Assembly (NCBI RefSeq): GCF_964213995.1 | Contig: NC_135830.1 | Span: 16,058,001-16,122,000, forward strand | Length of the DNA stretch: 64,000 nt | Reading direction: 5' to 3' | From: Mustelus asterias | Taxonomy: Eukaryota | Shown: piece by piece, positions 2,435-57,760 of the stretch | Numbering within the stretch: the stretch's first letter is position 1 | Layout: every line of letters starts with the position of its first letter | The notes under the pieces: model-generated | Seen by the model: only the letters and a program-made list of their open reading frames with translations | The model's database searches: none | What the model was told of the DNA's origin: nothing | Made by a program: the position numbers and the translations under genes

Positions 2435-2787
2435 ATGCATCATTTTCTCTTTTTGACTTCGATATTCATTCTTCTCATTCAGGCCAGTGAGGAAATGGAG
2501 GCAGTGTTTCAGGATCCACCGAGTATCAGAGTGAGTTACGGAGACAGTGTGAAGCTAAACTGCAATTATTCGACATCACATACTTCTACTGCTTTCTTCT
2601 GGTATATTCAGCACCCAGAGAAACACCCTCAATATCTTTTGGAAAAAAGGAGTACTGGAAAAAATGTGACTGCCTTTGGGAAGCGGCTGCTTTATGCTAC
2701 TTTAGATAACACAGCAAGAACTGTTCCTTTAAGCATTCACTATGCGCAGTTCTCTGACAGTGCGATGTATTACTGTGTACTGGGACA
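2435..2787 (+). CDS. TCR alpha/delta V segment, apparently functional, leader and V in one exon
   Basis: MHHFLFLTSIFILLIQA leader continuous with VFQDPP..VKLNCNY..FFWYIQ..SDSAMYYCVLG; both canonical Cys and the Trp present; TATA-like tttataaa at about 2373-2380; RSS follows. Confidence 0.9.
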
Positions 2788-2826
2788 CACAACGTTACCA
2801 GGTCAGTCGAGACCCGTACAGAAAAT
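2788..2826 (+). promoter_or_regulatory. 23-RSS of the V at 2435
   Basis: Heptamer cacaacg 2788-2794, 23-bp spacer, nonamer acagaaaat 2818-2826. Confidence 0.85.
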
Positions 2827-9270: not shown

Positions 9271-10196
9271 TCGAAATGACAGTGACCGTCACATGCTATC
9301 GAATGGCCTCATATAACAGAAGTAGGAGTCCCATGCAACATATAAGTTCCTCATAAAATGTAAGTCATTCCCAGACAGTACAAATGATGCCGACAGACTC
9401 CACCGACCATCACGCCACAATAGCATGCATTCTCACAAACACATTCACACAGCACCGGAAACATCATGAAACTGCCCAATGCGCACCACGTGGGAGCTGT
9501 CAAAAAATCCGACAGAAGAACATATGGAAATTAATAGATATGTTGATAACAATCCCAGCCCTCTTGACTATTCCACTCGTTTCTTTCCATGTTTATTTTT
9601 CTCTGGACCCCATTTCTATTGTGCTAGCTAGATTCTCCTTGTTTTCTGGTGTTTTAAAGCTCTGGTTATTTATTTCGTAGTCGTTGTGTCATTCATGAAT
9701 TCACTAGGCTCTCTCTATAATATTGCTTCATCATGGTCCCCTGTTTGATTAGGATACAGGGACGAACAAAATCGAGATTGTCTCTTCCGTCGCGGTATTA
9801 TGTTACATAATGGCATGCACCCCTCAGAAAGCATTCATTTTGCTTTGCATGTCGATTGTTTGAAATCTGTTTTAATGGACCCAAACATTCATTCCCTCCA
9901 CCACCAATGCAGCCGTCTGCACCATATACACGATGCACTGCAGGGACTCACCAAGCCTCCTTAAGCGGTACATTTCAAGCACACAACAGCTGAAACCTAG
10001 AAGGACACATCGGAACACTATCACTTTCCAGACTTGGAAATGTACTAGATTCCTTCACTGTCCCTTGGAAAATATTCTGGAATTCCCTCACTACCAGCGC
10101 TGTGGGTTTATATACACCGCAGCGACTGCAACCTTTCAAGAAGGCGGTTCACCACCACGTTATCAAGGGCAATTAGAGATTGGCAATGTCTACTGG

Positions 10197-11568
10197 AATA
10201 GGCCCGTGAGCCTTACATCTGTAGTGGGTAAATTGTTGGAAGGTACTTTGAGAGACAGGATCTACAGGAATTTAGAGATGCAAGGACTGATTAGGGAGAG
10301 TCAGGATGACTTTGTGAGAGGAAAATCATGTCTCACAAATTTGATTGAGTTTTTTGTAGGGGTAACCAAGAAGGTAGATGAGGGCAGTGCAGTTGACGTT
10401 TTCTACACGGACTTCAGCAAGGCCTTTCACAAAGTACCGCATGGTAGATTGTTGCATAAGGTTAAATCTCACGGGATCCAGGGTGAGGTATCTAAATGGA
10501 TACAAAATTGGCTTCTTGACGGAAGCCAGAGGTTGGTTGTAGAGAGTTGTTTTTTCCAACTGAAGGCCTGTGACCAGCAGTGTGCCTCAGGGATCAGTGC
10601 TGGGTCCACTATTATTTGTCATTTATATTAATGATTTGGATGAGAATATAGGAGGCATGGTTAGTAAGTTTGCAGATGACAGTAAGATTGGTGGCATAGT
10701 GGACAGTGGAGAAAGTTATCTTCAATTGCAACGGGATCTTGATTGGGCCACTGGGCTGACGAATGGCAGATGGAGTTTAATTTAGACAAAGGCGAGGTGA
10801 TGTATTTTGGTAGTTTGAACCAGGGCAGGACTTACTCAGTTAATGGTAGGGCGTTGGGAAGCGTTACAGAACAAAGTGGTCTCGGGGTACATGTTCATAG
10901 CTCCTTGAAAGTGGAGTCTCAGGTGGACAGAGTGGTGAAAAAGGCATTCGGCATGCTTCAATTCATCGGTCAGAACATTGAATACAGGAGGTGGGACGTC
11001 TTGTTGAAGTTGTACAAGACATTGGTAAGGCCACATTTGGAATACTGTGTGCAATTCTGGTGACCCTATTATAGAAAGGATATTATTAAACGAGAAAGAG
11101 TGCAGAAAAGGTTTACTAGGATGCTACCGCGACTTGATGGATTGAGTTATAAGGAGAGGCTGGATAGACTGGTACTTTTTTCTCTGGAGCGTATGAGGCT
11201 GAGGGGTGATCTTATGGAGGTCTTTAAAATAATGAGGGGCATAGACCAGCTAGATAGTCAATATCTTTTCCCAGACTTGCAGAGTCTAAAACTAGAGGGC
11301 ATAGGTTTAAGGTGAGAGGGGAGAGATACAAAAGTTTCCAGAGGGGCCTTTTCTTCACACAGAGGGTGGTGATGTAGTAGTGGAGGCGGGTACAATTTTG
11401 TCTTTTAAAAAGCATTTAGACAGTTACATGGGTACGATGAGGTATAGAGGGATAAGGGCCAAATGTGGGCAATTGGGATTAGCTTAGTGGCTTAAAAAAA
11501 AGGGGCGGCATGGACAAGCTGGGCCGAAGGGCCTGTTTCCATGCTCTAAACCTCTATGACTCTGTGAC
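10197..11568 (+). mobile_element. CR1 LINE, 5'-truncated, frameshifted RT
   Basis: [29 protein letters not shown] and FADD motifs; 8-bp TSD tctactgg at 10189-10196 and 11569-11576; empty site in the paralogous flank at about 23925-23945. Confidence 0.92.
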
Positions 11569-11896
11569 TCTACTGGCATCGCCAGCGAAGCCCACATCCC
11601 CTGAATCAATAACAATAAATAATCTATTCGAAACCAAGTCGAGCATGCCACCCACAACTGTCGATTACCTGCTGAAATTCTGGATTCTCGCTGCCGGGGG
11701 TTTCGACTGAAAATTCACAGCTCAGTTCCCCATTTAAATACTGGAGTTTCATTTTAAACTGTGGGCGTGGCCTCATTCACCGATGTTCGGGTCTGAAAGA
11801 CTTCAGTGCAGCTCTGAGATCCAGTCTCCCAGAGCAGTCCAGCTCTGTCGTCTCAGCTCCCTGGCATATAAACCGTCAGCTCCAGACAGCAGAACG

Positions 11897-12380
11897 ATGG
11901 GAATCCTTCTTGTTTTCACCCTGTGTGCCTGTTTACCCTGATGAGTACCGATCAAACTAACCCACATTGTGTGGATTGAATATAAAGTTGCTTCGTGTCC
12001 ATCTCAATTACAGACACTGTCTCGGATTTTAGCCCCTTTGTTTGGTTCGGCTCTGATGGTCCATTAAACTCTCTGTGTTTAATTTCCAGGATCTTTCAAT
12101 CAGCCAGTGACACAGAGCCTGGCAGCGTTGACCAGGAAGGAGTGTCAGTCTCTTACCATCACCTGTGTTTTCTGTGAAGTTCATGATTTAGAAAATGGTC
12201 ATTTTTTCAGACAAACCCAGACCGGGACGGAGCAGGAGCGCGTCACCAGCGGAGGGAGATTTATTGTATTGGTGAATAAAGCAGAAAAGACATTTTCACT
12301 GGAAATTCGGGATGTGAGAGTTGAAGACAGTGCCACCTATTACTGTAACGTTCAGCACTGGTACTACTCACATAGGACAC
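11897..12380 (+). pseudogene. NAR-TCR V (IgNAR-like), cassette 1; leader about 11897-11939, V exon 12090-12380
   Basis: MGILLVFTLCACLP leader with broken donor (ccctgatgagt vs ccccgtgagt in cassette 2, giving TGA). V: QPVTQSLAALTRKECQSLTITC...ERVTSGGRF...EDSATYYCNVQHWYYSHRT, with a VNAR-type short FR2/CDR2 and an FR1 Cys. Confidence 0.88.
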
Positions 12381-12408
12381 CGCATTCGGAGAGAGTTCGA
12401 CAAAAACC
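12381..12408 (+). promoter_or_regulatory. 12-RSS of NAR-TCR V cassette 1 (heptamer mutated)
   Basis: cgcattc + 12 bp + acaaaaacc; aligns with cacagtg-12-acaaatact in cassette 2. Confidence 0.75.
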
Positions 12409-12742
12409 TCAGGATAATCAAAACAGTAATTCCCAGCAATTCCCATGTTCGGTAACTTGACTTGTCGGTTTGATGTTATTCCCAGTTCAATCTAGTTTAA
12501 TTTCATTTTAATTTCCACCTATCAGTTATAATTCTTCCAGGTTTTTCGCCATTAATAAGAATCTTGCATCTCTGCTCCTGTTCCTGGGATATTTTACCAG
12601 GAACTCAGAGAGTCACAAGGAAAAGTTTGATCCAATGAGGTTTTTTTTAAACAACCAATGTTCATTATTGATTCAAATCCCCTGAATAATCGAGAAACAC
12701 TGATTGCTCGGTAATGGCTGCTCGGCAGTTTGAGGTGTCAAT

Positions 12743-12833
12743 CATTCTTGTGCTGGGCTGACTGAGAGCGCTGACACTGTGGGGAGAATGGAGATTGCAG
12801 ATGGGTCTGGGGCGGTGGTGACTGTCACAGCCG
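12743..12833 (+). pseudogene. NAR-TCR J cassette 1 (23-RSS 12743-12781, J 12782-12833), splice donor lost
   Basis: cattcttgt-23-cactgtg, then DGSGAVVTVTA; donor is ataagt instead of gtaagt. Confidence 0.88.
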
Positions 12834-13128
12834 ATAAGTGACTCCTAATCCTATTGTGTTGCAGCCTGTTTAGGTTAGTGTTCACCGTCAGTTTAAATTC
12901 GTTATCAGCATCACTTCAATTCTCTGCTTCTAAAGCAGGGTGCTTTCCAGTGGAAGATTTTCAATTGCAGATTTAGACTTGGGAGCAGATTAAGAAACCG
13001 AAGAGTCTCACAACTCGAAGAGTCAGGCTATGAGACCAGATTGAAGCAATGTGAGAACCCGAAGGACAGGTATCCCACAGGGAAGGAGGTTCAGCTCACT
13101 CGATCTGGACTATTATTGGTTTAAGGAA

Positions 13129-13675
13129 CAGTAAAATGTCTCACTACGCTAGATTAAAGGCCAACGGGTTTATTTGGAATCACGAGCTTTCGGAGCGCTG
13201 CTCCTTTCTGAGGTGAGTGGAGAGTTGGGTTCACAACACGGCATATATAGACAGAAACACAATTGCAAGACAATGGTTGGAATGCAAGTCTTTACAGGTA
13301 ATCAAGTCTTTACAGGCGCAGAGAACGCGAGTGGAGAGAAGAATAATCACAGGTTAAAGAGGTGCGAATTGTCTCAAGCCAGGACAGATGGTAGGACTTT
13401 GCAAGCCCAGGGAAAATGATGGAGGTTACATGTATTGTGACATGAACCTAAGATCCCGGCTGAGGCCGTCCTCAAAGATTCGCATTCCAACCATTACCTT
13501 GGAATTGCGTCTATGTGTATATGTGCCGTGTTTGCAAACCCAACTCTCCACTCACCTGAGGAAGTAGCTGCACTCCGAAAGCTCGTGATTCCAAATAAGG
13601 CTGTTGGACTTTAACCTGGTGTTGTGCGACTTCTTACCGTGCCCACCCCATTCCAACGCCGGCATCTCCAAATCA
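13129..13675. mobile_element. Penelope-derived element with inverted termini and hammerhead motifs
   Basis: 12-bp TSD tggtttaaggaa (13117-13128, 13676-13687); termini match the Penelope 3' end at 19500-19654; ctgagga...gaaagctc at about 13553-13587. Confidence 0.8.
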
Positions 13676-13754
13676 TGGTTTAAGGAAGGCATCGGTTAAT
13701 CCTCACAACTGCCTGCACTCTCACTCTCCTAACTGGTTTCAGTGAGCGCCCATT

Positions 13755-14075
13755 AGGGGAGGCCGTGACCAAGAGGAATTATCACTGGACAATGAATTCA
13801 AAAACACAGCTAAAGTTCTGGGAACCCGCCAGGGCAGATGGTGGAATTTCAATTCAATAAACATATCTGGAATTATGAATCTACTGATGACCATGAAACC
13901 ATTGACGATAGTCAGAAACCCCCATCTGGTTCACTGATGTCCTTCAGGGAAGGAAATCTGCCGTCTTTACCTGTCTGGCCTACATGTGACTGTAGAGTCA
14001 CACCAATGTGTCTGACTCTCAACTGCCTCTGGGTCACTGGCGACGGGCAGCGTCGACACCCAGTTCTCATCAATG
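13755..14075 (+). mobile_element. tRNA-derived SINE (second family; copies at about 20735-21120 and 37740-37825)
   Basis: Shared ...atcactggac...gatggtggaattt...gatgaccatg...gtctggcc...catgtgact motifs among the copies. Confidence 0.6.
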
Positions 14076-16479
14076 AATAAGAAGCAACTTGTGGACACAC
14101 CGAACCCTGCTTCCCGCTCCCCGCTGGGAGGAAGCGGAGCCACTGAGCACAGGATTTCTCTCTGCTCCAGGAAATGTCAATGAGCTACCGGGAGAAGCAA
14201 CCCAAAATTGCAGCGGCAGATCCAATACCTGCAGTGACAGGAAAACAGGAACATGACACAAATAGCTTCAAGAGCTAATTTTATAGTTGTAGGTGACATT
14301 TCATGCGCAATCAGTGACTAAAAATAATTACATCCTATCTGATTTTTATTTCCTTCCTCTTAACAATTATTTTGGCAGAATTCCAAAACGTTAGAATTGC
14401 ATTCTCTTCCACATATTGATCGCTGATGGTGGACAATTCTGTTTGCATTATGTTTTTTGTCGATTTCAAAAACATGCGATTGTGCTCACTGAAGCACAAT
14501 GAATCCCTCAAGAATTGGGTTGTGTCGCGGCTGAGGGTGCTGAACCGTTCCAAAGATTTTATTTTTGAGGACTAATGGAATCAATGGATTTGGAAATAGG
14601 ACGCACAGTTAGCATTAAGGTAGATGAACAGATCTGAACATTCCTGAATTGTACAGTGGGTCCCCAAGGTGGATTGGTCTACCATGTTTCTAAATTTTAT
14701 GTATCTTATTATCTGCATGAATTTCTTACACTCAGAGAATATAAATAATCAATCATGTGTATGGATATCGAAAGTTTGCAAAAGCTTTGACTTTCGGCTC
14801 TCGAAGGCCGGTAAGACATGAAAAACGGCATTGAAACACCGAACATTATGTTGTAGTTTCAAGGAGTTCCATGTGCAGAAACTGGTCCTTCGGTGGGAGA
14901 GCTGTTTCTTTCTTTAAATCATTCGTGTGACATGGCGTCGCTGGTTGGCCATCATTTATTGTGCATTCCTGGTCGCCCTTCAAATCAATGGCTGGCTAGG
15001 CCATTTTTAAGGGCAGTTGAGAGTCAATCACATTTCTGTGGCACTTTCTAAACATCCGAAATGGTTTCACGGTCAGCAGCAGATACTTAACTTCAGATTT
15101 TTAAAATTGAAGTCAAATTCCACCAACTGCCGAGGCAGGATTCGAACCAGGGCCCCAAAAGAACTGGATATTTATATATGAAATATGAAATGTCTATCAG
15201 AAGAGATAGACATGTTTAGAATATGTTTAAATCACGGGTAGATAGTTTTCTGATCGATAAGGGAATTAGGGGATATGGGGAGCAGGCGGGTAAGTGGAAC
15301 TGATTCGCTTCAGATCAGCCATGATCTTGTTGAATGGCTGGGCAGGCTCGAAGGGCCAGATGGCCTACTCCTGCTCCTATTTCTTATGTTCTTATGTTCT
15401 TATGATAGAAACATTCGGGTATATTTACACGGAGACACATCAGAATGTGAAACTCGCTCTTTGGAGAAACGGCGTGATGAATTTATGGCACAGCTTGGGA
15501 GAGAGGAATAAAAAGACACACAGCTCAGGATGTAAATGGTTATTTCGGGTTCGAGAGGTGAACGGGCGTCCGAGGACAATCTTCGACCAGCTGGACTGAG
15601 TGGCCTATTCGTGTTAAGTGGAAAGTGTAGAATGTTAAACTCAGAGACTATTGTGTTCGGAAAGAACAGGGAACAATCAGCCAATGGACTAAAAGGATTG
15701 AAATTCTCACATACCCTGAAGGCAGTTCCCAGTGAGTAACAGTAAAACCACTGCGGAAACTGAACAGACTGAACCAACCGACAACTGAGAGAAATTAGGG
15801 CAAGTTTTCATGACGGTTAGAAACCGCCATGAACAGACAGAAAACAACTCAGATGTAGAAATAAAATGAAATCAACTTGCAAATATTTCTAATGGAAGTA
15901 AAACGGTAGAATTGATGGACGGAAACAGACAAAGAGCCCAACGGCAGACAGGAGTTACCTTGTAGTGTTGAACTGCGGCCAAAGGTCGATTTTTGACCCA
16001 CAGGTATACATTGTCATTTCGGATTATTAGGTGCGGACGAAAATCTCTATTCTGTGCTGAACCTTGAGATTTACAGGTTCACAAGACTGCCCGATTTTCT
16101 TTCGGGCAATCAAATCTAGAGAGCAATTAATTCACTGAAAAGAAGAGTGAACTTTACGATTTAGTTTTCTGGTTCGCACTTCACCAATATATTTATTAGA
16201 AGATATTTAATAAAAATAGAATCATACTCCGCAAAAAAAAACACAATTCTGTCAGTAATTTGAAGGTTCTGCCAATGTACCTATTCGCTCTTCTTTGGTC
16301 CCCACTGGAATCCTGTCCTGTCCCAGAAGTTTCTCCCGCTCAATTACCGTTTGAAAGTTAATGCTAAGTCTGCTCCCAGCATCAGCCCTTCCGCATGCCA
16401 TTCAGGTGACTGCAATTCTCTGTGCAAAAAGGTCTGAAGATCTGCCACGCTTGTTTATTTCCAATTCAAATTCACAGAA

Positions 16480-16780
16480 TCCCAACAGGGCAGAAAGAGG
16501 TCATTCGGCCTATCGAGTCTGCACCGACCACGTCCCACCCAGTCCCAGGCTCTATTCCCATAACCCCACATATTTGCCTTTCTAATCTCCCTCTGGCACG
16601 AGGGTCAATGTCGATCAACGTAATCTGCACATTTTTGGACTGGGGGAGGAAGCCAGAGCACCCGGAGGAAACCCAAACGGTCACGGGGAGAACAGGCAAA
16701 CAGTGACCCGAGCGTGAAATTGAACCTGGGTCCCTGGCGCTGTGAGGCAACATTGGTAACTGTGTCACTGCGCCGCCCCC
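16480..16780 (-). mobile_element. HE1-like SINE in the J-to-Vdelta intron
   Basis: Reverse complement of the SINE at 33245-33590. Confidence 0.8.
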
Positions 16781-16887
16781 AAATTCAATTAAACAAATTG
16801 CTGCAACAGCCAGGTATTAACCCGATTGACAAGTTTCCAGGATAAACGGCGACGAAACAAACAATTCATTTTATTTCTACACTGCAG

Positions 16888-17193
16888 ATTCCAGCTCACC
16901 TGTGTCACCAAGTTCCCTTCTACAAACATCTGCTGCCGGCGACACGGTTATGTTAAGCTATGAATATTCAGGTCTCTGTCAGGACACAGTACACTGGTAC
17001 CGTCAGACCCGAGGACAGACTCCGAAGTGCCTGCTTCAGACACACACTTCAGGAGACGAGAATAAAGCAAACGCTGTCGCGGGGAGAATTTCTGCTTCTA
17101 TCGAATCTTCAGTCAAAATCAGCCGGTTAAAGATCTCCAAACTTCAACTGAGCGACTCCGCTGTTTATTACTGTGAAATGAGTTGGCGCACAG
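16888..17193 (+). pseudogene. Supporting TCR delta V (leaderless), cassette 1
   Basis: ctgcag acceptor; SSSPVSPSSLLQTSAAGDTVMLSYEYSGLCQDTVHWYRQ...SDSAVYYCEMSWR. First canonical Cys replaced by Tyr; CDR1 Cys retained; RSS heptamer is catagtg. Confidence 0.88.
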
Positions 17194-17242
17194 CATAGTG
17201 TCACAGAACACGGAGACAGCTGTACAAAAACCTGAACATGGT

Positions 17243-19654
17243 TCAGAGGAATTCATCAGGCGAATGAGGCTGCGGGAGTTCTTCCACAAACCCCAAGAGG
17301 CCAACAGCGAACACAATGAGACAGCTAATGAACCGGAACAGCAGACAGAGAGACCCGCAGTGCAACCGAAGAGGAAAGAGTCGAATTGGACTCCTCCGGA
17401 AGGCCGCTGCCCTCGACTTGACATGTATGCCCAAGCCATCAGGAGGTGCGTCAACACCAAATTCATCAGCCGAACTCACAAGACAGCACCGAACATCACC
17501 CAAGCACAACGCAACGCCATCCACGCTCTCAAGACCAACCGCAACATTGTCATCAAACCAGCAGACAAAGGAGGGGCCATCGTCATACTGAACAGAACGG
17601 ATTACTGCAAAGAAGTGCACCGACAACTAAACAACGAGGAACACTACGGAGAGTTACCCACAGATCCGACCAAAGAACACACCCGTCAACTCAACACTCT
17701 GATCAAAACCTTTGATCCGGACCTTCAGAGCACCCTCCGTGCTCTCATCCCACGTACTCCACGCGTTGGAGATCTCTACTGCCTCCCAAAAATACACAAG
17801 GCAAACACACCCGGCCGTCCCATCGTTTCAGGAAACGGAACCCTGTGCGAGAACCTCTCCGGCTATGTCGAGGGCATCTTGAAACCCATTGTACAAAGAA
17901 CCCCCAGCTTTTGTCGCGACACTACGGACTTCCTACAGAAACTCAACACACGTGGAGCAGTTGAACCAGGAGCACTCCTCGTCACAATGGATGTCTCGGC
18001 ACTCCACACCAGCATCCCCCACGATGATGGCATTGCTGCAACGGCCTCAGTACTCAATGCCGTCAACTGCCAGTTTCCAGATGCAATTTTACAACTCATC
18101 CGCTTCATCCTGGATCACAATATCTTCACCTTCAACAGCCAGTTCTTCATCCAGACACACGGAACAGCCATGGGGACAAAATTCGCACCTCAATATGCCA
18201 ACATCTTCATGCACAGGTTCGAACAAGACTTCTTCACCGCACAGGACCTTCAACCGATGCTCTACACTAGATACATCGATGACATTTTCTTCCTTTGGAG
18301 CCATGGTGAGCAATCACTGAAACAACTCTATGATGACATCAACAAGTTCCATCCCACCATCAGACTCACCATGGACTACTCTCCGGAATCGGTTGCATTC
18401 TTGGACACACGCATCTCCATTAAGGACGGTCACCTCAGCACCTCACTGTACCGCAAGCCCACGGATAACCTCATGATGCTCCACTTCTCCAGCTTCCACC
18501 CTAAACACGTAAAAGAAGCCATCCCCTACGGACAAGCCCTCCGTATACACAGGATCTGCTCGGATGAGGAGGATCGCAACAGACACCTCCAGACGCTGAA
18601 AGATGCCCTCATAAGAACAGGATATGGCGCTCGACTCATCGATCAACAGTTCCGACGCGCCACAGCGAAAAACCGCACCGACCTCCTCAGAAGACAAACA
18701 CGGGACACGGTGGACAGAGTACCCTTCCTCGTCCAGTACTTCCCCGGAGCGGAGAAGCTACGGCAACTCCTCCGGAGCCTTCAACATGTCATTGATGAAG
18801 ACGAACATCTCGCCAAGGCCATCCCCACACCCCCACTTCTTGCCTTCAAACAACCACGCAACCTCAAACAGACCATTGTCCGCAGCAAACTACCCAGCCT
18901 TCAGGAGAACAGTGACCACGACACCATACAACCCTGCCACAGCAACCTCTGCAAGACGTGCCGGATCATCAACATGGATGCCATCATCTCATGTGAGAAC
19001 ACCATCTACCAGGTACACGGTACCTACTCGTACAACTCGGCCAACGTTGTCTACCTGATACGCTGCAAGAAAGGATGTCCCAAGGCATGGTACATTGGGG
19101 AAACCATGCAGACGCTACGACAACGGATGAATGAACACCGCTCGACAATCACCAGGCAAGACTGTTCTCTTCCTGTGGGGGAGCACTTCAGCAGTCACGG
19201 GCATTCAGCCTTGGATCTTCAGGTAAGCGTTCTCCAAGGCGGCCTTCACGACACACGACAGCGCAGAGTCACTGAGCAGAAACTGATAGCCAAGTTCCGC
19301 ACACATGAGGACGGTCTAAACCGGGATGTTGGATTTATGTCACATTATCAGTAACCCCCACAGCTTGCCTCCTGGACTTGCACAATTTCACAAGCTGTAC
19401 TGTCTGGAGACAATACACATCTCTTTAACCTGTGTTGAATGCTCCCTCCACCCACATTGTCTGTACATTTAAGACCTGGCTGGCTGTAGAGATTTGCATT
19501 CTAATCAGTATTCTGTAATTTGATTTCTGTGTCTGTGCCCTGTTTGAGAACAGAGACCACTCCATCTGACGAAGGAGCATTGCTCCGAAAGCTTATGGTA
19601 TTTGCTACCAAATAAACCTGTTGGACTTTAACCTGGTGTTGTGAGACTTCTTAC
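17243..19654 (+). mobile_element. Penelope-like retroelement, 5'-truncated, uninterrupted RT + GIY-YIG ORF (to 19354)
   Basis: KPADKGG, PKIHK..PGRPIVS, GTAMG, RYIDD and VVYLIRC..WYIGET motifs; hammerhead motif in the 3' terminal region. Confidence 0.95.
19562..19598 (+). ncRNA. Minimal type I hammerhead ribozyme motif (Penelope-associated)
   Basis: ccat-CTGACGA-a-ggagc(att)gctcc-GAAA-gctt-atgg: stem I, catalytic core, stem II and palindromic aagctt stem III. Confidence 0.8.
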
Positions 19655-19966
19655 GATGATTACAGACACAGTGATTTGGTAGACGGAAAAAGCTTTACAA
19701 AAACCTGAACATGGTGATGATTACAGACAGAGTGATTTGGTACACGGAAACAGCTTTCCAGAAACCTGAACATGGTGAGAATTACAGACATTGTGATGAA
19801 GAACACGGAGAGAACTGTACAAAGGCCTGAATATGGTGAAGTTTACAGGCACAGTGATTTCGAACACGGAAACAGCTAGACGGAGACCTGAACATTGTGA
19901 GGATTACAGACATAGTGATACAGAACACGGAGAGCTGAACAAAAGCCTGAAGATGAATTACAGATT

Positions 19967-20271
19967 CTTGTAGTCCTCACCATGTCCATGTTTTTGCACA
20001 ACTCTCTCCTTGTTCTGTATCACTGTGTCTGAAATCCTCACCATGTTCAGGTTTCTGTCCAGCTCTCTCCGTGTTCTGTCTCACTGTGTCTGTAAGCCTC
20101 ACCATGTTCAAGTTTCTGTACGGCTCTCTCCGTCTTCTGCATCACTGTGTATGTAAGCCTCACCATGTTCAAGTTTCTGTACAGCTCTCTCCGTGTTCTG
20201 TCTCACTGTGTCTGTAAGCCTCACCATGTTCAAGTTTCTGTACGGCTCTCTCCCTGTTCTGCATCACTGTG
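19967..20271 (-). repeat. Tandem 61-bp 23-RSS array, 5 units, behind the intact supporting Vdelta
   Basis: CACAGTG heptamers at 20265-20271, 20204-20210, 20143-20149, 20082-20088 and 20021-20027; all spacers 23 bp; nonamers acagaaact x3, acagaaacc, gcaaaaaca; 22-bp linker tgaacatggtgaggcttacaga. Confidence 0.95.
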
Positions 20272-20577
20272 CTGTGTGCCGACTCAGTGCACAGTAATAC
20301 ACAGCGGAGTCGCTCAGTTGCAGCTTGGAGATCATTAACCAACTGATTTTTTCGACTGGGTCGACAAAAGCAGAAATTCTCGCCCCGGCAGCGTTTTCTT
20401 TGCTCTCCTCGCCTGATGTGTGTCTCATAAGCAGGTATTTTGGGGTTTGTCCTGGAGACTGACGGTACCAGTACAGTGTGTGTTGACAACGTCCCTGATA
20501 TTCGCAGTTTAAAGTAATGGTGTCGCCAGCAGCACACGTTTGGAGAGACGAATTCTGTGCCACAGATGAACTGGATT
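20272..20577 (-). CDS. Supporting TCR delta V (leaderless), cassette 2, apparently functional
   Basis: ttctgcag acceptor in phase with the J donor; ESSSSVAQNSSLQTCAAGDTITLNCEYQGRCQHTLYWYRQ...SDSAVYYCALSR; CDR1 Cys as in NAR-TCR supporting Vdelta; consensus heptamer. Confidence 0.9.
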
Positions 20578-22674
20578 CTGCAGAACCAATAAAATAATGC
20601 ACAATATTTCTATGATGCCATTACCTGCGTTGCATGTTAGTTTGCCCGGGGAAACATAATCGCGTCAATAGCTGACCATTTTGCCGCAATTGTTTCATTG
20701 AAGGGTGTTCGACATGTATTAACTATAATTGAGGAGACGGTGCCATAGTGGTATTGTCACTGGATTAGTTAATCCAGAGATTTAGTAATCCACGGAATGC
20801 CCTGGGGACACGGGTACGAACGGTACCACGGCCGATGGTGAAATTTGAATTTCAATTCAATCTTGAATTAATTCCAAAAAAAATGTTGAAGCAATGTCTA
20901 ATGATGACCATGGAACCATTGCCACTTATCGTTAAAACCACATCTGTTTCTCGAAGGTCCTTTTGGGAAGAAAATCTGCCATTCGTATCTGGTCTGGCCG
21001 CCATGTGACTCCAGGTCCACAACAATATGGTTGCCTCTTAAATGCCCTCTAAATGGGCTTCACAAGCCACCCAGTTCAAAGGCAATTAGGAACACCCACA
21101 TCCCGAGAATGAATTGAACAAATGGCAAAAGAGCGAGGGGCAAATATTTAGATGATTTTTATTTTATCACACAGCGAATTTTGCTCAATTGGATCCTTTG
21201 GAGATGTGATTTTGGGAACATATTCAGCACTCATTTTAAAACCGCCAATGGAAGAAATATACAGAATCAGATTAGAATTCCGGTGGTTTTGAAGAGTAGG
21301 AAGGTAACAGAGGTAAAGTTCAGTAGCACCTGCAAATAATCGCCACTTGGTCAGAATGATGTCCTTTTCCGGTTTCTCATTTTATGTTTTATATTTAGTG
21401 TCTGCTTCTGTGTATATTGGCGATTTACAAACCTGAGGAAATTACATGAAAGTTCACTTTTCTCACTATAACAATTGCTGTCCAGAGTTGATTGACTGAG
21501 AGTAACCCTACCTTTTTATATCCTGGGTCACATCAAGATTCAAGCGAAGATGGTCATACTCGCCCAGCGAAACTAATTATGCGAAAATGATATTGCATAT
21601 CTGTGTCAAAGATCAACCTTTGACTACCGTTTAACTCTTTGCACAGTTTCGTCCATCGATTCTACAATTTATATTATATATTAGAATGATTTTCAGTTAA
21701 TACCAGTGGATTTCTAAATCTGAGTTGTTCTCTTTGTGCTGCTTGCGATTTCTTGCCACCATGAGAACCTGTCCCATACACTCTCCAATATCAGTTGAGA
21801 TCAGCATGCTCAGTTTCCCCGATTGACTTGCTCACTGTTACTCACTGTGAAAATTGCCTTTTCAAGGTGCTTGAGATTTTCAATTCATTCCATCCATTGG
21901 TTGATTGTTCCCCATGCTTTCTGGGCAGAATCCCCTAAAAAGAGGTCTTTACCTAAAAAGAGGTCTGGGCAGAATCCTCTCTGTATTTTATATTATATAG
22001 ACTCTACAGAACAGAAGTAGGCCAGTCGGCTCACAGTACGCTTGTCCTTGCACTGCACACGTACCTACGCCCCTGTCACACTCGATCCCTAACGAAACCT
22101 TTGTACACTGAGCACTGTGTCCTTCTCCCTCCTCGATTTTTCACGCCGTCAGAAAAATTCCTTACGCCATTTACTGCAACCACTCCATCTGGTAGCGCCC
22201 TCCACATGCCTCCTAATTTCTTTTTCTTTTATCTCACTGGCATCATATTAAATGTTTCTTTAATCTGAATCGTTTTCTCCACACGTACATTAATGAACCT
22301 ATAAATTAATGCTAAAGATTTATATCAACAACAAAAACTGAAAAATGTTGGCAAACCTCAACAGGTCTGACAGCATCTGTGGAGACAGAATAGAGTCAAC
22401 GTTTCCAGTCGGGATGACCCTTCGTAAGAGCCACAGAGGGAATCAAAGTTGACACTAGGACAGAAGTCATAGCTTCAAAATGTGGACCCGACTCCAGTTT
22501 CCTATTATGCTCCCAAATCTAAAACTGCAATTGAAAATCTTCCACAGAAACCCCCCTTCCCCCACGCTGCTATTGTAGTCACAGCGGATTGAAGAGAGGC
22601 AGACTACAAGAATGAACTGACGGCGAAAACGAACCAGGACATTCTGCAACACGGGGGGATTTGGAGTCACTTAC

Positions 22675-22766
22675 CAGCTGAGACAGTCACCACCGTCCCA
22701 GACCCATCTGTAAATCTCCACTCTCCCCACAGTGTCAGCACTCTCAGTCAGCCCAGTACAAGAATG
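22675..22766 (-). CDS. NAR-TCR J cassette 2 (J 22675-22727, 23-RSS 22728-22766)
   Basis: cattcttgt-23-cactgtg, then GEWRFTDGSGTVVTVSA and a gtaagt donor. Confidence 0.9.
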
Positions 22767-23097
22767 ACTTACACGTCAAACTGATGGGGAAAAAATTACC
22801 GAATAGTCAGCGTTTATCAATTATTCAGGGGTTATAGATCAGCAATGAAGTATGATAGTTTTATAATTCCCATTGGAACAAACTGTTCCTTGGGACACTC
22901 TGAACTCTTGGCAAAACGGCCCAGGAACGGAGCGGAGATGGACGCTTCGTAGAAATGGAATAAAAAAGTTAAAGAAAGATAACTGAACGGAGGAAATTAC
23001 AACGAAATTAAACCATGTTGCAACGATAATAACCACAACCCGACAAGCTGTGGTCCGTGTCCTGGAAATTATTGCTTCGCTTGTTCAGAAATACTTA

Positions 23098-23125
23098 AGT
23101 ATTTGTTCTCCTCTCTTCCACTGTG
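23098..23125 (-). promoter_or_regulatory. 12-RSS of NAR-TCR V cassette 2
   Basis: cacagtg + gaagagaggaga (12 bp) + acaaatact. Confidence 0.88.
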
Positions 23126-23607
23126 GTGTCCCATGTGTGTAGTACCAATGCTGAGCTTTACAGTAATAGGTGGCAGTGTCTTCAATTCTCATGTCCCGAA
23201 TTTCCAGCGAAAATGTCTTTTCTGCTTCATTCACCGACACAACAAACCTCCCTCCGCTGGAGATCCGCTCCCGCTCTGTCCCAGTTTGGGTTTGTCTGAA
23301 GAAATGGCCATTTTCTAAATCGTAAACACCATTGAAAACACAGGTGATGGTGAGAGACTGACACTCCTTCCTGGTCACCGCTGCCGGGCTTTGAGTCACT
23401 GACTGACTGAAACATCCTGGAAATTAAACACAGAGAGTTTAATGGAGCATCAGAGCCGAACCGCACAACGGGGCTAAAACCCCAGACAGTGTTTGTAATT
23501 GAAATGGACTGGGGCAGCTTTATGTTCAATCCACACAATGTGAGTTAGTTTGATCGGTACTCACGGGGTAAATAGGCACACACGGTGAAAACAAGGAGGA
23601 TTCCCAT
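23126..23607 (-). CDS. NAR-TCR V (IgNAR-like), cassette 2, apparently functional; leader 23565-23607, V exon 23126-23416
   Basis: MGILLVFTVCAYLP|gtgagt...tttccag|CFSQSVTQSPAAVTRKECQSLTITC...ERISSGGRFVVSVNEAEKTFSLEIRDMRIEDTATYYCKAQHWYYTHGT; open frame; TATA-like catataaa at about 23631-23638. Confidence 0.92.
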
Positions 23608-25049
23608 CGCTCTGCTGCCTGGAACTGAGGTTTATATGACGGGGAGCTGAGACTGCAGAGCTGGACTGCTCTTGGAGACTGGACCTCAGAGCTGAATTGA
23701 AATACTTCAGACCCGAACACTGGTAAGATAGGCCACGCCCATCCTTCAAATTAAGTTCAAGGATTTAAATGGTGAATGCAGCTGTGAACTTTCAGTCAAA
23801 ACTACCCGGCAGCCAGAACACAGAGACTCATCCCGCTACCCACAGCAGTGTCTGCCATGCTCTACTTGCTCTCGAGTAGATTATTTATTGTTATTAATTC
23901 AGGGGATGTGGGCTTGGCTGGCGATGGCAGCAGACATTGCCAATCTCTAATTGCCCTTGATAAGATGCTGGTGAACTGCGTTCTTGAACGGTTGCAGTCC
24001 CTGCGGTGTAAGTACACCCTCCGCACGATTCGGGAGGGAATTCCAGAATATTAACCGAGACCGACGGACAGTAAAGGAACGGAGGATATTTCTAAGTCTG
24101 GATAGTGGTGGTGTTCGCATGGCCTTCTAAATTGTAGCTGTTTTGTGTCTGAAATGAAGCGCCTAAGGAGGCTTGGTGAGTTCCTGCAGTTCATCGTGTA
24201 CATGGTACAGAAGGTTGCCACTGTGCATCGTTGGTGGAGCGAGTGAATGCTGGTGAAAGCGGCACCAATCAAACGGGGCTGCTTTGTCCTGAATGCAACG
24301 CCCTGTAAATTGGAATCTCAGTGTGCAACTTTAGAACCACCTCCTTTGTCTGAGTAAGAAGGACAGCTTCACTGGAGGCGCATCCGACTAATTGTACTTC
24401 CTGTGTTATTCAGAGCAGCTGACTCAGTTTACACTCCTTATTCGCCGGAGTCAAACAGCGGCTGATAGGATCAAATGAGATCAAACCCACAATAGAGATA
24501 TTAACTGCGAAACAGCGGGATACTTAGGAGGATTCGAACAGTTGGATTCTAGTTCGACTTCCGGAACCCTTCAAAGTCTGTGGGAAATTTAATTTTAAGG
24601 GAACAAAAATGTGAAAGAATTTATGGGTTCCCCTTTTGATTCTTGTTCTGAAGCTCGATGAGTCCTTTAGCTTGCAATAGAACGAAGTTTTGTCACATAA
24701 CTATTGAACGAGGGGTGGGTGTGTAAACAAGGAGTGAACATTGGGGCATTTAAGGGGATAATAGAGGATGGATGGATGAACGGACCGACAGTAGGATGAA
24801 TGGAGGGACGGACGGATGCGAGTTTTGAATGACCATTCACTTTGATTGAGTGAAATTTACAATAGTTTGCTGCAGTGAAAAATTAGGTAATTGGAGGGAA
24901 AGAACATTGGATGTATGTATGGAAGACGCTGAAGGTGTTGGTTCAAATTGCACTTTAAAAACTATATAGAATTCGTGCCTCTATTTATAATGTGCAAATA
25001 CAAAAACAAAAGGTTTTTTCACAGGTAAACAGGCTTCACTTGAAGTATG

Positions 25050-26923: not shown

Positions 26924-27407
26924 GTGCAGATATTCAGAGTCTGGATTGTGTTTGGGATAATTTTTGACGGTGAGGACGATTTCAACAGTGTTCCATTCAA
27001 ATTAAAGTTTTACTTTTTTGTTAATGCCCATCTTGTCTTGTTCCTGAACACATTACAAATCAGAGTGATGGAGATTCAATTCCTCAGTCCATCGCATCAG
27101 TGAGCGTGAAAGAAGCTGAAGCCGTGACTATAAAATGTATCTATAGCACTACAGAAGAAAGGTATTATGTATATTGGTACTTGCAGCAAGCAACGAAAGA
27201 GCCCCAGTTTGTTGTGTGGAGATGGTCTTGTGATGTTGTGGAATGGAAAGGCTCGGCGTTAGGAAATCGTTTTGCATCAGACCTCTAGCTGTCAGACTCC
27301 ACCACAAGATTAACCATCATGGACCTGCAACCGACTAACGCCGCCGTTTATTACTGCGCCCTGGGACTCACAGTAATAGAAAACAGTACCTACGCTGTAC
27401 AAAAACT
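26924..27407 (+). pseudogene. TCR alpha/delta V pseudogene (leader 26924-26969, V about 27059-27368, 23-RSS 27369-27407)
   Basis: Leader starts GTG rather than ATG; GDSIPQSIASVSVKEAEAVTIKCIY..VYWYLQ..RFASDL* (TAG 27286-27288)..AVYYCALG; RSS cacagta-23-acaaaaact. Confidence 0.9.
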
Positions 27408-54795: not shown

Positions 54796-56420
54796 TCCTA
54801 ATTGAATGGCGCATGCCTAATTGACAGGGGGCACTCCTAATTGACAGGTGGCACGCCTAACTGACAGGGGGAACTCCTAATTGACAAGGGCACTCCTGAT
54901 TGACGGGGGGCCCTCCTAATTGACAGGGGCACTCCTAATTGAGACTCAGCACTCGTAACTGAAAGAGTCGCTGCTCCAAATCTAAATAAGTTGCATTCCA
55001 AACCGCTATAAGTGCACTCCAAATCGAGATAGGGGGCACTCCAAATCGAGATAGGGGGCATTCCTAATGGAGATATAGGTGGCATTCCAATCGAGATAGG
55101 GGGCACTCCAAATCGAGATATGGCGCGCACTCCAAACCAAGATAGGGTGGGCACTCCAATTCGAGATAGGGGGCACTCCAAATCGAGATATGGGGGGCAT
55201 TCCAAACCGAGATATGCAGGGCACTCCAAATCGTGATACGGGGAGGTTGGAAAACTCCAAATCGAGATATGGGGGGCACTCCAAATCGAGGGATTGGAGG
55301 ATCTTCAAATCGAGATATGGGAGGAACCGCAAACCCAGATATGGGGGGCACTCCAAATCGGGATATGGGGGTGCACTCCAACTCGAATGGGGGAAATCCA
55401 ATTCGAGATAATGGCACACCTAGTCAAGGTAGGGGCATGCCTAATTGACAGAGGGCACTCATAATAGACAAGGGACACTCATAATTAACAAGGGGCACTC
55501 ATAATTGACCCAGCCTCTCCTAATCGAAATAGTGAGCACTCCAAATTGAGATGGGAGCATTCCAAATCAAAATAGGGGGCATTCCAAATCGAGATATAGG
55601 GCATTCCTAATTGACCCGGGGCACTGGAAATTGACATTTGGAACTCATAATCGATCGGGGGCACTCCGAGTTGACACTGGCACATAATTGACAGGGGGCG
55701 CACCTAATTCACCCAGGTATTCCTGATTGGCGGGCCACCCCTAATTGACAGGGTCACCCCTAATTGACGAGGCCACCCGTAATTGACAGGGGGCCCTCCT
55801 AATTGACATTGGGGCACTCCTCATAGTCATGGGGGGGGGGGGGGCGGGCACTTGTCATCGAGATGTGGGGCACTTGTCATCGAGACAGGGAACACTCTAA
55901 ATCGAGATGGGGGTCACTCCAAATCGAGATCGGAGATGCTCCTAATTGAGATCGGGGGCACTCCAAATCGAGATAGGGGTCACTACAAATCGACACGTGT
56001 ACTGGTAATTCACAGGGGGCACACCTAATTGACCTGAGCAGTCAGAAATGACAGGGGGTACTCATAATGGAGACTGGTATTCCTAATTGTCTGGTGGCAC
56101 TCAAAATGGGCAGGGGGCACTCAGAATTGACAGGGGGCAATCCTAATTGACCAGGGCACTCATAATTCACCCGGAATTGACAGGGGTCACTCCTAATTGA
56201 CTCGGGCACTCATATTTGAGATTCGGGCACTCATAATTATTCGCTGCTCCCATAACTGAAATAGTCGGTCTCCAAATCTAAATTGAGATAGAAGGCTCTT
56301 ATTCGAGTTAGGGGATGCTCCAAATTGGGATGGGGTACTCTAAATCAGGATAGTGAGCAATCTAAATTGAGATAAGGCACACTTCAAATTGAGATAGAGG
56401 TCTCTCTTATTGGAGATGGG
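54796..56420. repeat. Degenerate 20-23-bp minisatellite with two interleaved unit types
   Basis: gggggcactcctaattgaca and gggggcactccaaatcgagat units. Confidence 0.9.
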
Positions 56421-57334
56421 GGAAGCCGGGAGTTGTGGGTGTTGCTGGATGTTTACTCTGGGCTCTGAGAGCCTCATTCCCCCATCATTAAGAGCAAAGG
56501 TGCTGCAGCAGGAGCATCAAGAGCACCCGGGGCAGCTGCCAATGAAATAAATAACAAGACACTGTTTGTGGTGCTGCCCAAATGGAAGAGTAGTGGGAGT
56601 AGTGGTCTGGGTAGTGGGGCGGTTGGGGGGTGAATAAGGGATACACACACAGATCACTGTTTCCCTTATTCACCACACCCCGCTACCCAGACCGATCGCC
56701 ACTCCTGCCCCCTTCCCCCCACCGATCGCCCGCAGAGTGACAGCGGACCCCCTGCACCCCCACCAGAGATCCATCTGCGCCCCCGCCCCCACCGCCCGAG
56801 ATACACCCTCGCTCCTGCTTGTCACTCCGGGTCCGCTTTCTGTGCTTTCTGCGGGTCGGGTGCGGTCCGACACGGGCGCACTTTCTCCAATTTATTTCTA
56901 ACTGCGCATGATCAGTTCCGAGATCTGATCGTTCCGGCCGCACTAAGCCCCGTCCACAGCGGGAATAGGACTGGAGATGGCTGAAAGTGTATGGGGGCGT
57001 CTGGAAGCAGACTTCTAAGTCGGATCCGTACTTTACCCAGATTTCACTTAGAATGAAAATAGTAAAATCGGGCCCTCTGTGTTAAATGCAAATATAATTC
57101 TCTAAGTTGAGAGAGACACCAATCTTGTAAATGCATTTTCGTGAAATCTAATACAACTGGGTCCAATTCATTACAAGCATTATCATACAGTATCTTGTTT
57201 GTATTTATTATAACGAAACCATTTTGAGGTGCAGGACACGAATACTTAATTGGTGGAGATGAGGGAGTAGAGCAAAATTCATATTCAAATGTACCATGTG
57301 CCAAGGAGGGTACCGAAGGGTTAGGTTAACTATC

Positions 57335-57760
57335 TAATGTACTGACCCTCTGACATTGCAGCACCAGCTCAGTACTGACTCTCTGACAGTGCGGCATTCC
57401 CTCAGTACTGACCCTCTGACAGTGCGGTGCTCTCTCAGTACTGACCCTCTGACAATGCAGCACTCCCTCAATCTGACCCTCTGACAGTGCAGCACTCCCT
57501 CAGTCCTGATCCTCTGGTAGTGCAGCACTCCCTCAGTACTGACCCTCCCACAGTGCAGCACTCCCTCAAACTGGCCCTCTGACAGTGCGGCACTCCCTCA
57601 GGACTGATCCTCTGACAGTGCGGTGCTGTCTCAGCACTGACCCTCTGACAATGCAGCACTCCTTCAATCTGACCCTCTGACAGTGCGGAACTCCCTTAGT
57701 ACTGATCCTCTGACAGTGCAGCTCTCCCTCAGTACTGATCCTCTGACAGTGCGCCCTCAG
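57335..57760. repeat. About 33-bp tandem repeat
   Basis: cactccctcagtactgaccctctgacagtgcag units. Confidence 0.92.

Follow-up and report, generated by a model that had tools for sequence, protein, structure and literature searches.

The question raised by this locus is how two arrays of RSSs, lying behind V exons of opposite orientation, came to meet tail to tail exactly at a border of their repeating unit. The locus lies in a stretch of 64,000 nucleotides from Mustelus asterias, which was analysed as a whole and is here called the window.

Organisation of the window

The window contains two cassettes in opposed orientation, tail to tail. In each cassette a NAR-TCR-type V comes first, followed by a J that carries a 23-RSS and then by a second V, whose CDR1 contains a cysteine. 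Behind both second Vs there is an array of 61-bp units, the unit being a heptamer, a 23-nt spacer, a nonamer and a 22-nt linker. The features are as follows.

9886–24249, no strand: inverted homology between the arms, in blocks at 71–79% identity
12046–12380, plus strand: first V exon of the left cassette, NAR-TCR-type, with a decayed 12-type RSS directly 3'
12743–12835, plus strand: 23-RSS of the left cassette (heptamer end at 12781) and J, the end of the J being approximate
16882–17193, plus strand: supporting V-delta exon of the left arm, with the CDR1 cysteine
17194–17242, plus strand: proximal RSS unit of the left arm, heptamer CATAGTG, broken off after 10 nt of linker
17243–19654, plus strand: retroelement within the first linker, with approximate ends and repeated copies in the window
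19667–19964, plus strand: plus array, 5 units of heptamer, 23-nt spacer, nonamer and 22-nt linker, the last unit decayed and 54 nt long
19965–19966, no strand: junction centre TT, type T1, between the opposed arrays
19967–20271, minus strand: minus array, 5 full 61-bp units by the unit parse, with CACAGTG in all
20272–20583, minus strand: supporting V-delta exon of the right arm, open frame, with the CDR1 cysteine
22680–22766, minus strand: J and 23-RSS of the right cassette (heptamer at 22728), the end of the J being approximate
23098–23460, minus strand: first V exon of the right cassette, NAR-TCR-type, with a 12-RSS directly 3' (heptamer at 23125)

The homologous inverted blocks pair 9886–19955 with 24249–19969, with a short spacer between long arms. 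The retroelement, which we take to be Penelope-like, sits between the plus V and the plus array, looks young and has a long frame; the same insertion is also present in contigs C2349 and C444. Elsewhere in the window there are an additional V with a decayed RSS at about 2450–2800 (plus), two further 23-RSS sites at 27369 (plus) and 40020 (minus), and several minisatellites at 54796–57752, with repeats of 19–24 bp and 33 bp.

In cartilaginous fish, the NAR-TCR cassette is described as a first V, D, J and supporting V-delta (available parts of PMC1845163 and PMC12227049; the latter and PMC6509286, also available in part, serve as background only). The present cassettes resemble those of PMC1845163, as far as its available text describes them, in having a first V with a leader, a cysteine in the a-b loop and no tryptophan of the WYRK type, and a supporting V with the CDR1 cysteine. 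The first V here has the a-b-loop cysteine and lacks the canonical tryptophan (...RKECQSLTITC...GHFFRQ), and a leader-like start of the left first V can be read near 11898. The supporting V-delta sequences, YQGRCQHTLYWYRQ and YSGLCQDTVHWYRQ, have the CDR1 cysteine and a J with a 23-RSS upstream. A further likeness is the V23-12D12-23J layout, which is complete in the unjoined paralogues L101 and L109. A PDB search returned generic V domains only. The tail-to-tail pairs and the tandem 61-bp RSS arrays meeting at a unit border distinguish the present cassettes, and were not met with in the literature searched.

It is worth adding that a 12-RSS lies directly 3' of the first V at both 12340–12410 (plus) and 23150–23098 (minus). 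The letters before it start CAC..ATGGG, as does the V's own RSS in the unjoined paralogues. This contact could be a deletion from within the V RSS, and not a clean V-D coding joint.

The junction between the arrays

The plus array ends at 19964 with ...GAATTACAGA (in a longer read, ATTACAGA), and the final linker of the minus array occupies the 22 nt from 19988 to 19967; TT at 19965–19966 separates the two. A sequence-only reading of the window had described the opposed arrays as stopping where the next heptamer is due, with about 2 nt (TT) between them, and the unit parse bears this out. It had also described the minus linker as a full 22 nt. The length is correct, but the linker ends in TACAAG instead of TACAGA, and only its length is that of a full linker. 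The plus array closes with a decayed unit, which has a heptamer starting CAT, a 21-nt spacer and a 17-nt linker. Depending on the parse, 1, 2 or 4 nt are inserted at the centre, the right end being uncertain by 1–2 nt. Because the left linker at this centre has its full 22 nt in the paralogues L039, L042, L040, L047 and L034, a full linker, 2 nt and a second full linker would appear to be a fair ancestral parse.

The T1 joint has no RSS or heptamer letters left. It is 2 edits away from a blunt border-to-border fusion, compared to 6–7 edits from the second centre type (T3, below) or from a shared-heptamer product. In this it resembles a coding joint, but both arrays in the window consist of 23-RSS units only and the 12/23 pairing of a coding joint is therefore absent, so that it is not classed as one here. 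Of the TT, only the first T is compatible with a P nucleotide, a match with a chance of 1 in 4 in a joint too old to read.

CAC is retained in 43 of 53 full-length distal units. In a comparison of how well the parts of the unit are preserved, the values are 0.065 for CAC, 0.123 for the nonamer and 0.081 for the linker (74 of 83 units kept, the copies being non-independent). The heptamers and nonamers of distal units show no clear advantage over the linkers, and these figures give no sign, either way, of selection on the distal RSS.

Distribution of the junction

The assembly search gave at least 105 matches, and 40 of 58 candidates were scored. In all, 67 array ends at 45 loci were classified. 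T1 accounts for 22 ends on the left and 16 on the right, and T3 for 4; 2 ends are degenerate (L037/38), and 23 are cut by a retroelement. Where no retroelement has cut the 3' end of an array, the array always stops at a centre of this kind. T1 occurs at 22 places among the 45 loci, in six diverged sequence types; these are places and not genes, and some of the contigs are probably haplotype copies. Contig C153 is 100% identical to the window.

Gap-free contigs across the centre are found in three of four other runs: X3, from another sample (19905–20058, 1 difference), X5, from organism B (19808–20005, 15 differences), and X12, from organism C (19826–20001, 15 differences). These are short-read contigs, not long reads. 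For X7, the matches listed include no piece that bridges the centre.

The site is a palindrome within repeats, and the sequence-only reading had named an assembly or fold-back artefact among the things that would refute it. However, the arms are 70–79% alike and not identical, and the occurrence of the centre at 22 places in six diverged types, together with the contigs bridging it in three other runs, lays this concern to rest; we consider an artefact hardly credible. T1 is most likely a single ancient joint, inherited and then copied, and most likely older than the split of organisms B, C and this shark. Since the joint is common to the paralogues and to the contigs of other organisms, all these copies amount to evidence for one event only.

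The search for unjoined relatives

Among the 67 array ends at 45 loci, there is no unjoined array, allele or paralogue showing the lost DNA. Nor was an unjoined left-clade cassette found: the left-clade intron is present at 27 places, of which 26 are among the classed loci, and at the 27th (C2969) the contig ends before the V. L037/L038 and L051/53/54/77/89/90 were considered as unjoined cassettes and rejected, their 3' flank being the inverted intron. In L037/L038 and L051/53/54/77 the flank is the inverted upstream intron, beginning at the splice acceptor, and these loci are pairs that have lost the right-arm V and array. In the remaining single-looking arrays, a repeat cuts inside the last unit.

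The right-arm deletions at L077:4398–4420 and L037:3703–3725 remove the V exon and the array as far as the splice acceptor; the exon start and the linker are joined in L077 through the microhomology GATT. In L039, L042 and L044 the right arm meets the junction with just one RSS and its linker, this being either an ancestral state or a contraction.

The sequence GATTCTTG, behind arrays of the L036 type, was considered as a junction and rejected; it lies in repeat sequence from unit position 39–40. The repeat is presumably a LINE of CR1 type, and no second copy of it was found among the loci compared. Retroelement ends were also considered as a marker for breaks at the border and dropped, few of the 5 insertion ends being at the border or centre. 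The SINE in L040/L047 is at the border and the L045 element at the centre, while the other insertions start off the border, at position 53 or before in L031, at 39–40 in L036 and at 49 in the window.

The sequence-only reading had taken the junction for a germline RAG coding joint, in which two facing distal 23-RSSs were synapsed, the DNA between them was deleted, and the linkers were joined with P/N nucleotides. Joining of two 23-RSSs violates the 12/23 rule. It would also require a prior inversion as well as this deletion, and leaves T3 unexplained. The absence of an unjoined left-clade cassette among the 27 intron places tells against it, and the deletion of intervening DNA has lost its footing: no unjoined allele or paralogue was found, and an inverted duplication gives equal ends free. 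In its favour, both ends are at the border, which for two free breaks has a chance of (5/61)^2 = 0.7%; the first T is P-compatible; and the two V exons of the window are no more than 70% alike, each being nearer to other rows of the V tree than to its partner (p-AU 4e-86). The complete absence of RSS letters is as in shark germline joints, although these are reported with little TdT activity, which counts against the proposal (both from the available part of PMC2193156). What survives of the proposal is that the joint is real and germline, lies at a heptamer border on both sides and has no heptamer letters. The 23/23 synapsis is not supported, and we regard the proposal as a whole as distinctly improbable.

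A second type of centre

The T3 centre occurs at L051, L053, L054 and L077 (4 of the 67 array ends), at the same unit border as T1. It consists of a linker, CACATG or CACTCG, and an inverted linker end. It thus retains 6 of the 7 heptamer letters, and is 1 edit from a linker, a whole heptamer and an inverted linker end; L077 reads CACA-TG and L090 reads CACT-CG. Because coding joints leave no heptamer letters (as described in the available part of PMC2193156), T3 is no plain coding joint, and some process other than the joining of coding ends must therefore have placed opposed linkers together at this border. The comparison of the two centres cuts both ways: T1 alone fits a border cut better, and T3 shows a route to the border that is not a coding joint. 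Given the place of the intact L077 arm in the intron tree (below), the two centre types may have arisen separately, and a border hit twice would indicate a targeted cut.

T3 also bears on another explanation, that a RAG-independent deletion joined already convergent cassettes at the heptamer or at fragile hairpins, and that the tip was then eroded. CACAGTG and CACTGTG on the opposed array are alike at 6 of 7 letters, and T3, as read in L077 and L090, is 1 edit from the product. However, the best exact microhomology of opposed units is longer (CTGTACAG, 8 bp) and lies elsewhere in the unit, off the border at unit position 27–34. T1 is 7 edits away, and no unjoined precursor was found among the loci classed. 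Such a deletion is more improbable still.

The centre behaves like a fragile palindrome. Arm deletions begin 9–20 nt from it in L077 and L037, there is a further deletion at the centre in L051/L089, and L045/46 have a retroelement in it. Small deletions at the centre and loss of arms are a known fate of palindromes, according to the available parts of PMC8701086 and PMC10766186. The heptamer itself is a weak fold-back site; 2-bp fold-back stems are centred at 16 of the 61 unit positions, and the sole 3-bp stem is not at the heptamer.

RAG joints in the V family

The assembly contains 4 independent, recognisable RAG joints of array-bearing Vs, and all 4 use the proximal RSS. In C122:393170–398946 (L075, L052, L099, L100, L111), inversion has placed the supporting V against the 12/12 D that lies upstream in the same cassette. 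The signal joint, at the proximal unit, is precise, and all 4 units of the array are kept; this locus is 99.55% alike to the unrearranged L055. The other three are V-to-D-delta joints, in C850 (L074), in C401 (L076), and one common to L071, L072 and L073 (C96, C119 and C436). The 12-RSS partner is seen in C122 and is implied elsewhere by the D-delta layout, and the ends are trimmed. In these respects the genuine RAG joints do not resemble the junction centre, which favours an origin without RAG.

The contigs with the shared joint are 98.4–99.4% alike, have unrearranged J 12-RSSs downstream, and match the closest unjoined V of the loci compared at about 97%. From the sequence, this is probably a germline-joined TCR-delta V-D. 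The other joints, 99.5–99.9% alike to unjoined copies, may be somatic. The V family has probably been a target of RAG in germ cells, and the shared V-D joint raises the prior expectation of germline RAG activity.

L123 (C71:11023780) and L113 (C138), taken with L074 and L076, add V-D joints and what looks like one D-D joint. D-delta occurs in several widely spaced copies on C71, which suggests repeated TCR-delta D-J clusters there.

The sequence-only reading had concluded that the distal units are real substrates, for which the assembly offers no backing. A D-delta copy directly after a linker was found in 0 of 15 cases, the sole signal joint found is at a proximal unit and none at a distal one, and the 4 joints, a small number, include no case of distal or 23/23 use. 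That real joints are proximal in 4 of 4 also counts against the 23/23 deletion.

RAG could nevertheless have acted in another way, by making a germ-cell cut at a distal unit's heptamer border, after which the hairpin was replicated, or sister or paralogous ends were fused, to give a palindrome. No 23/23 synapsis and no prior facing pair would then be needed, and each cut might have been made with a legal 12-RSS. The small distance of T1 from a blunt palindrome and its lack of heptamer letters agree with such a cut, as do the sister arm lineages, the retention of CAC in most full-length distal units, and the germline V-D joint in the family. Against this, no distal-unit joint is seen among the 15 D-delta copies and the signal joints, T3 demands another mechanism, the evidence is of one event only, and a replicated hairpin requires a second junction to rescue the chromosome. 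We consider this course of events unlikely.

Relationships of the arms

The V tree has 32 rows; in the intron tree 18 of 19 rows were kept, with blocks chosen by alignment to one flank. The V tree groups the left arms with L037 (98/95). In the intron tree, the left arms and the right arms of the window type form one side of a 100/100 branch, and the V tree has the same split at 83/94. Both of these arm types have the V-with-12-RSS state. The two other right-arm types are placed elsewhere in the intron tree.

A single clade of right arms is rejected by the intron tree (p-AU 5e-11), but not by the V tree (p 0.25). Swaps of arms have to be assumed to explain why the right arms of T1 do not hold together in the intron tree. 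A single clade of all paired arms is rejected in the V tree (p 0.012). A grouping of the intact L077 arm with the left arms is rejected by the intron tree (p-AU 2e-6), but not by the V tree (p 0.32). The sisterhood of arms can be mimicked by arm-to-arm conversion, whatever made the joint, and the root is insecure.

Origin of the junction

On the basis of these observations, we tentatively favour the reading that the T1 centre is the worn centre of an old inverted (fold-back) duplication, made once and without RAG. A broken or stalled strand would have folded on itself where a heptamer, or an end resembling one, has the symmetry CA..TG, and reverse copying of the cassette from the folded strand would have given the tail-to-tail pair. 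T3, with its linker, CACATG and inverted linker, retains this symmetry, although no single-copy ancestor carrying it turned up among the loci classed, and T1 would have arisen as the unstable palindrome tip lost a few bases. Slippage between the CACA of the centre and the CACA of the heptamer would have set the 61-bp register, so that the arrays end at the centre by construction. Arm swaps, deletions and retroelement insertions at or near the centre would have followed.

An inverted duplication makes equal array ends automatic and the arm lineages of the window sisters. A single coincidence (about 5/61) then has to be accepted, and not even that one if array growth began at the centre. It may well be that such a duplication accounts at once for both centre types, for the occurrence of the family in pairs and, with slippage at CACA, for the register of the arrays, although we put this no higher than a leading possibility. 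Against the fold-back duplication, the change from T3 to T1 needs a loss of at least 4 nt plus about two changes, the closeness of T1 to a blunt fusion suits a border cut, and the family has probably undergone cutting by RAG in the germline.

Comparison with known systems

Shark germline V-J joining takes place between a 12/23 pair. The nurse shark NS4 VJ is a germline-joined shark Ig gene, and such joints keep no RSS letters according to the available part of PMC2193156. T1 resembles them in the absence of RSS letters, in having few added bases and in being germline. The Ig genes, in that same portion of the paper, join V to J and have split relatives from which P nucleotides and trimming can be read. 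In contrast, the junction here joins two non-coding linkers behind 23-RSSs, and its sister centre keeps heptamer letters.

The palindromes of inverted duplications (ODIRA, PMC10766186; mouse data reviewed in PMC8701086), to the extent that the available parts describe them, are alike in having a short spacer between inverted arms, and also in their small changes at the centre, arm deletions and later rearrangement. They differ in that the centre here is an RSS heptamer border in register with a tandem array, and is very old and present in many copies. Such arrays or junctions are not described in the parts of the literature that were available, which included few subscription papers and the main texts only.

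The architecture is real and unusual. It is conceivable, although we lean against it, that a distal unit was once cleaved by RAG in the germline, the coding ends then being sealed together, by a replicated hairpin, a sister fusion or a 23/23 joint. The RAG and palindrome readings predict different outgroup genomes, and are therefore testable. If the palindrome reading is true, the RSS stacks and the paired cassettes would have a single origin, and this would explain the clustering of deletions and insertions at the centre. If instead RAG sealed the ends, the stacked distal RSSs would be true substrates, and the tail-to-tail architecture of this whole family of NAR-TCR cassettes would be the work of the V(D)J recombinase, which would have served to duplicate germline DNA. 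The junction would then be a relic of RAG at work in the germline, where it rebuilt a TCR locus and did more than fuse V, D and J.
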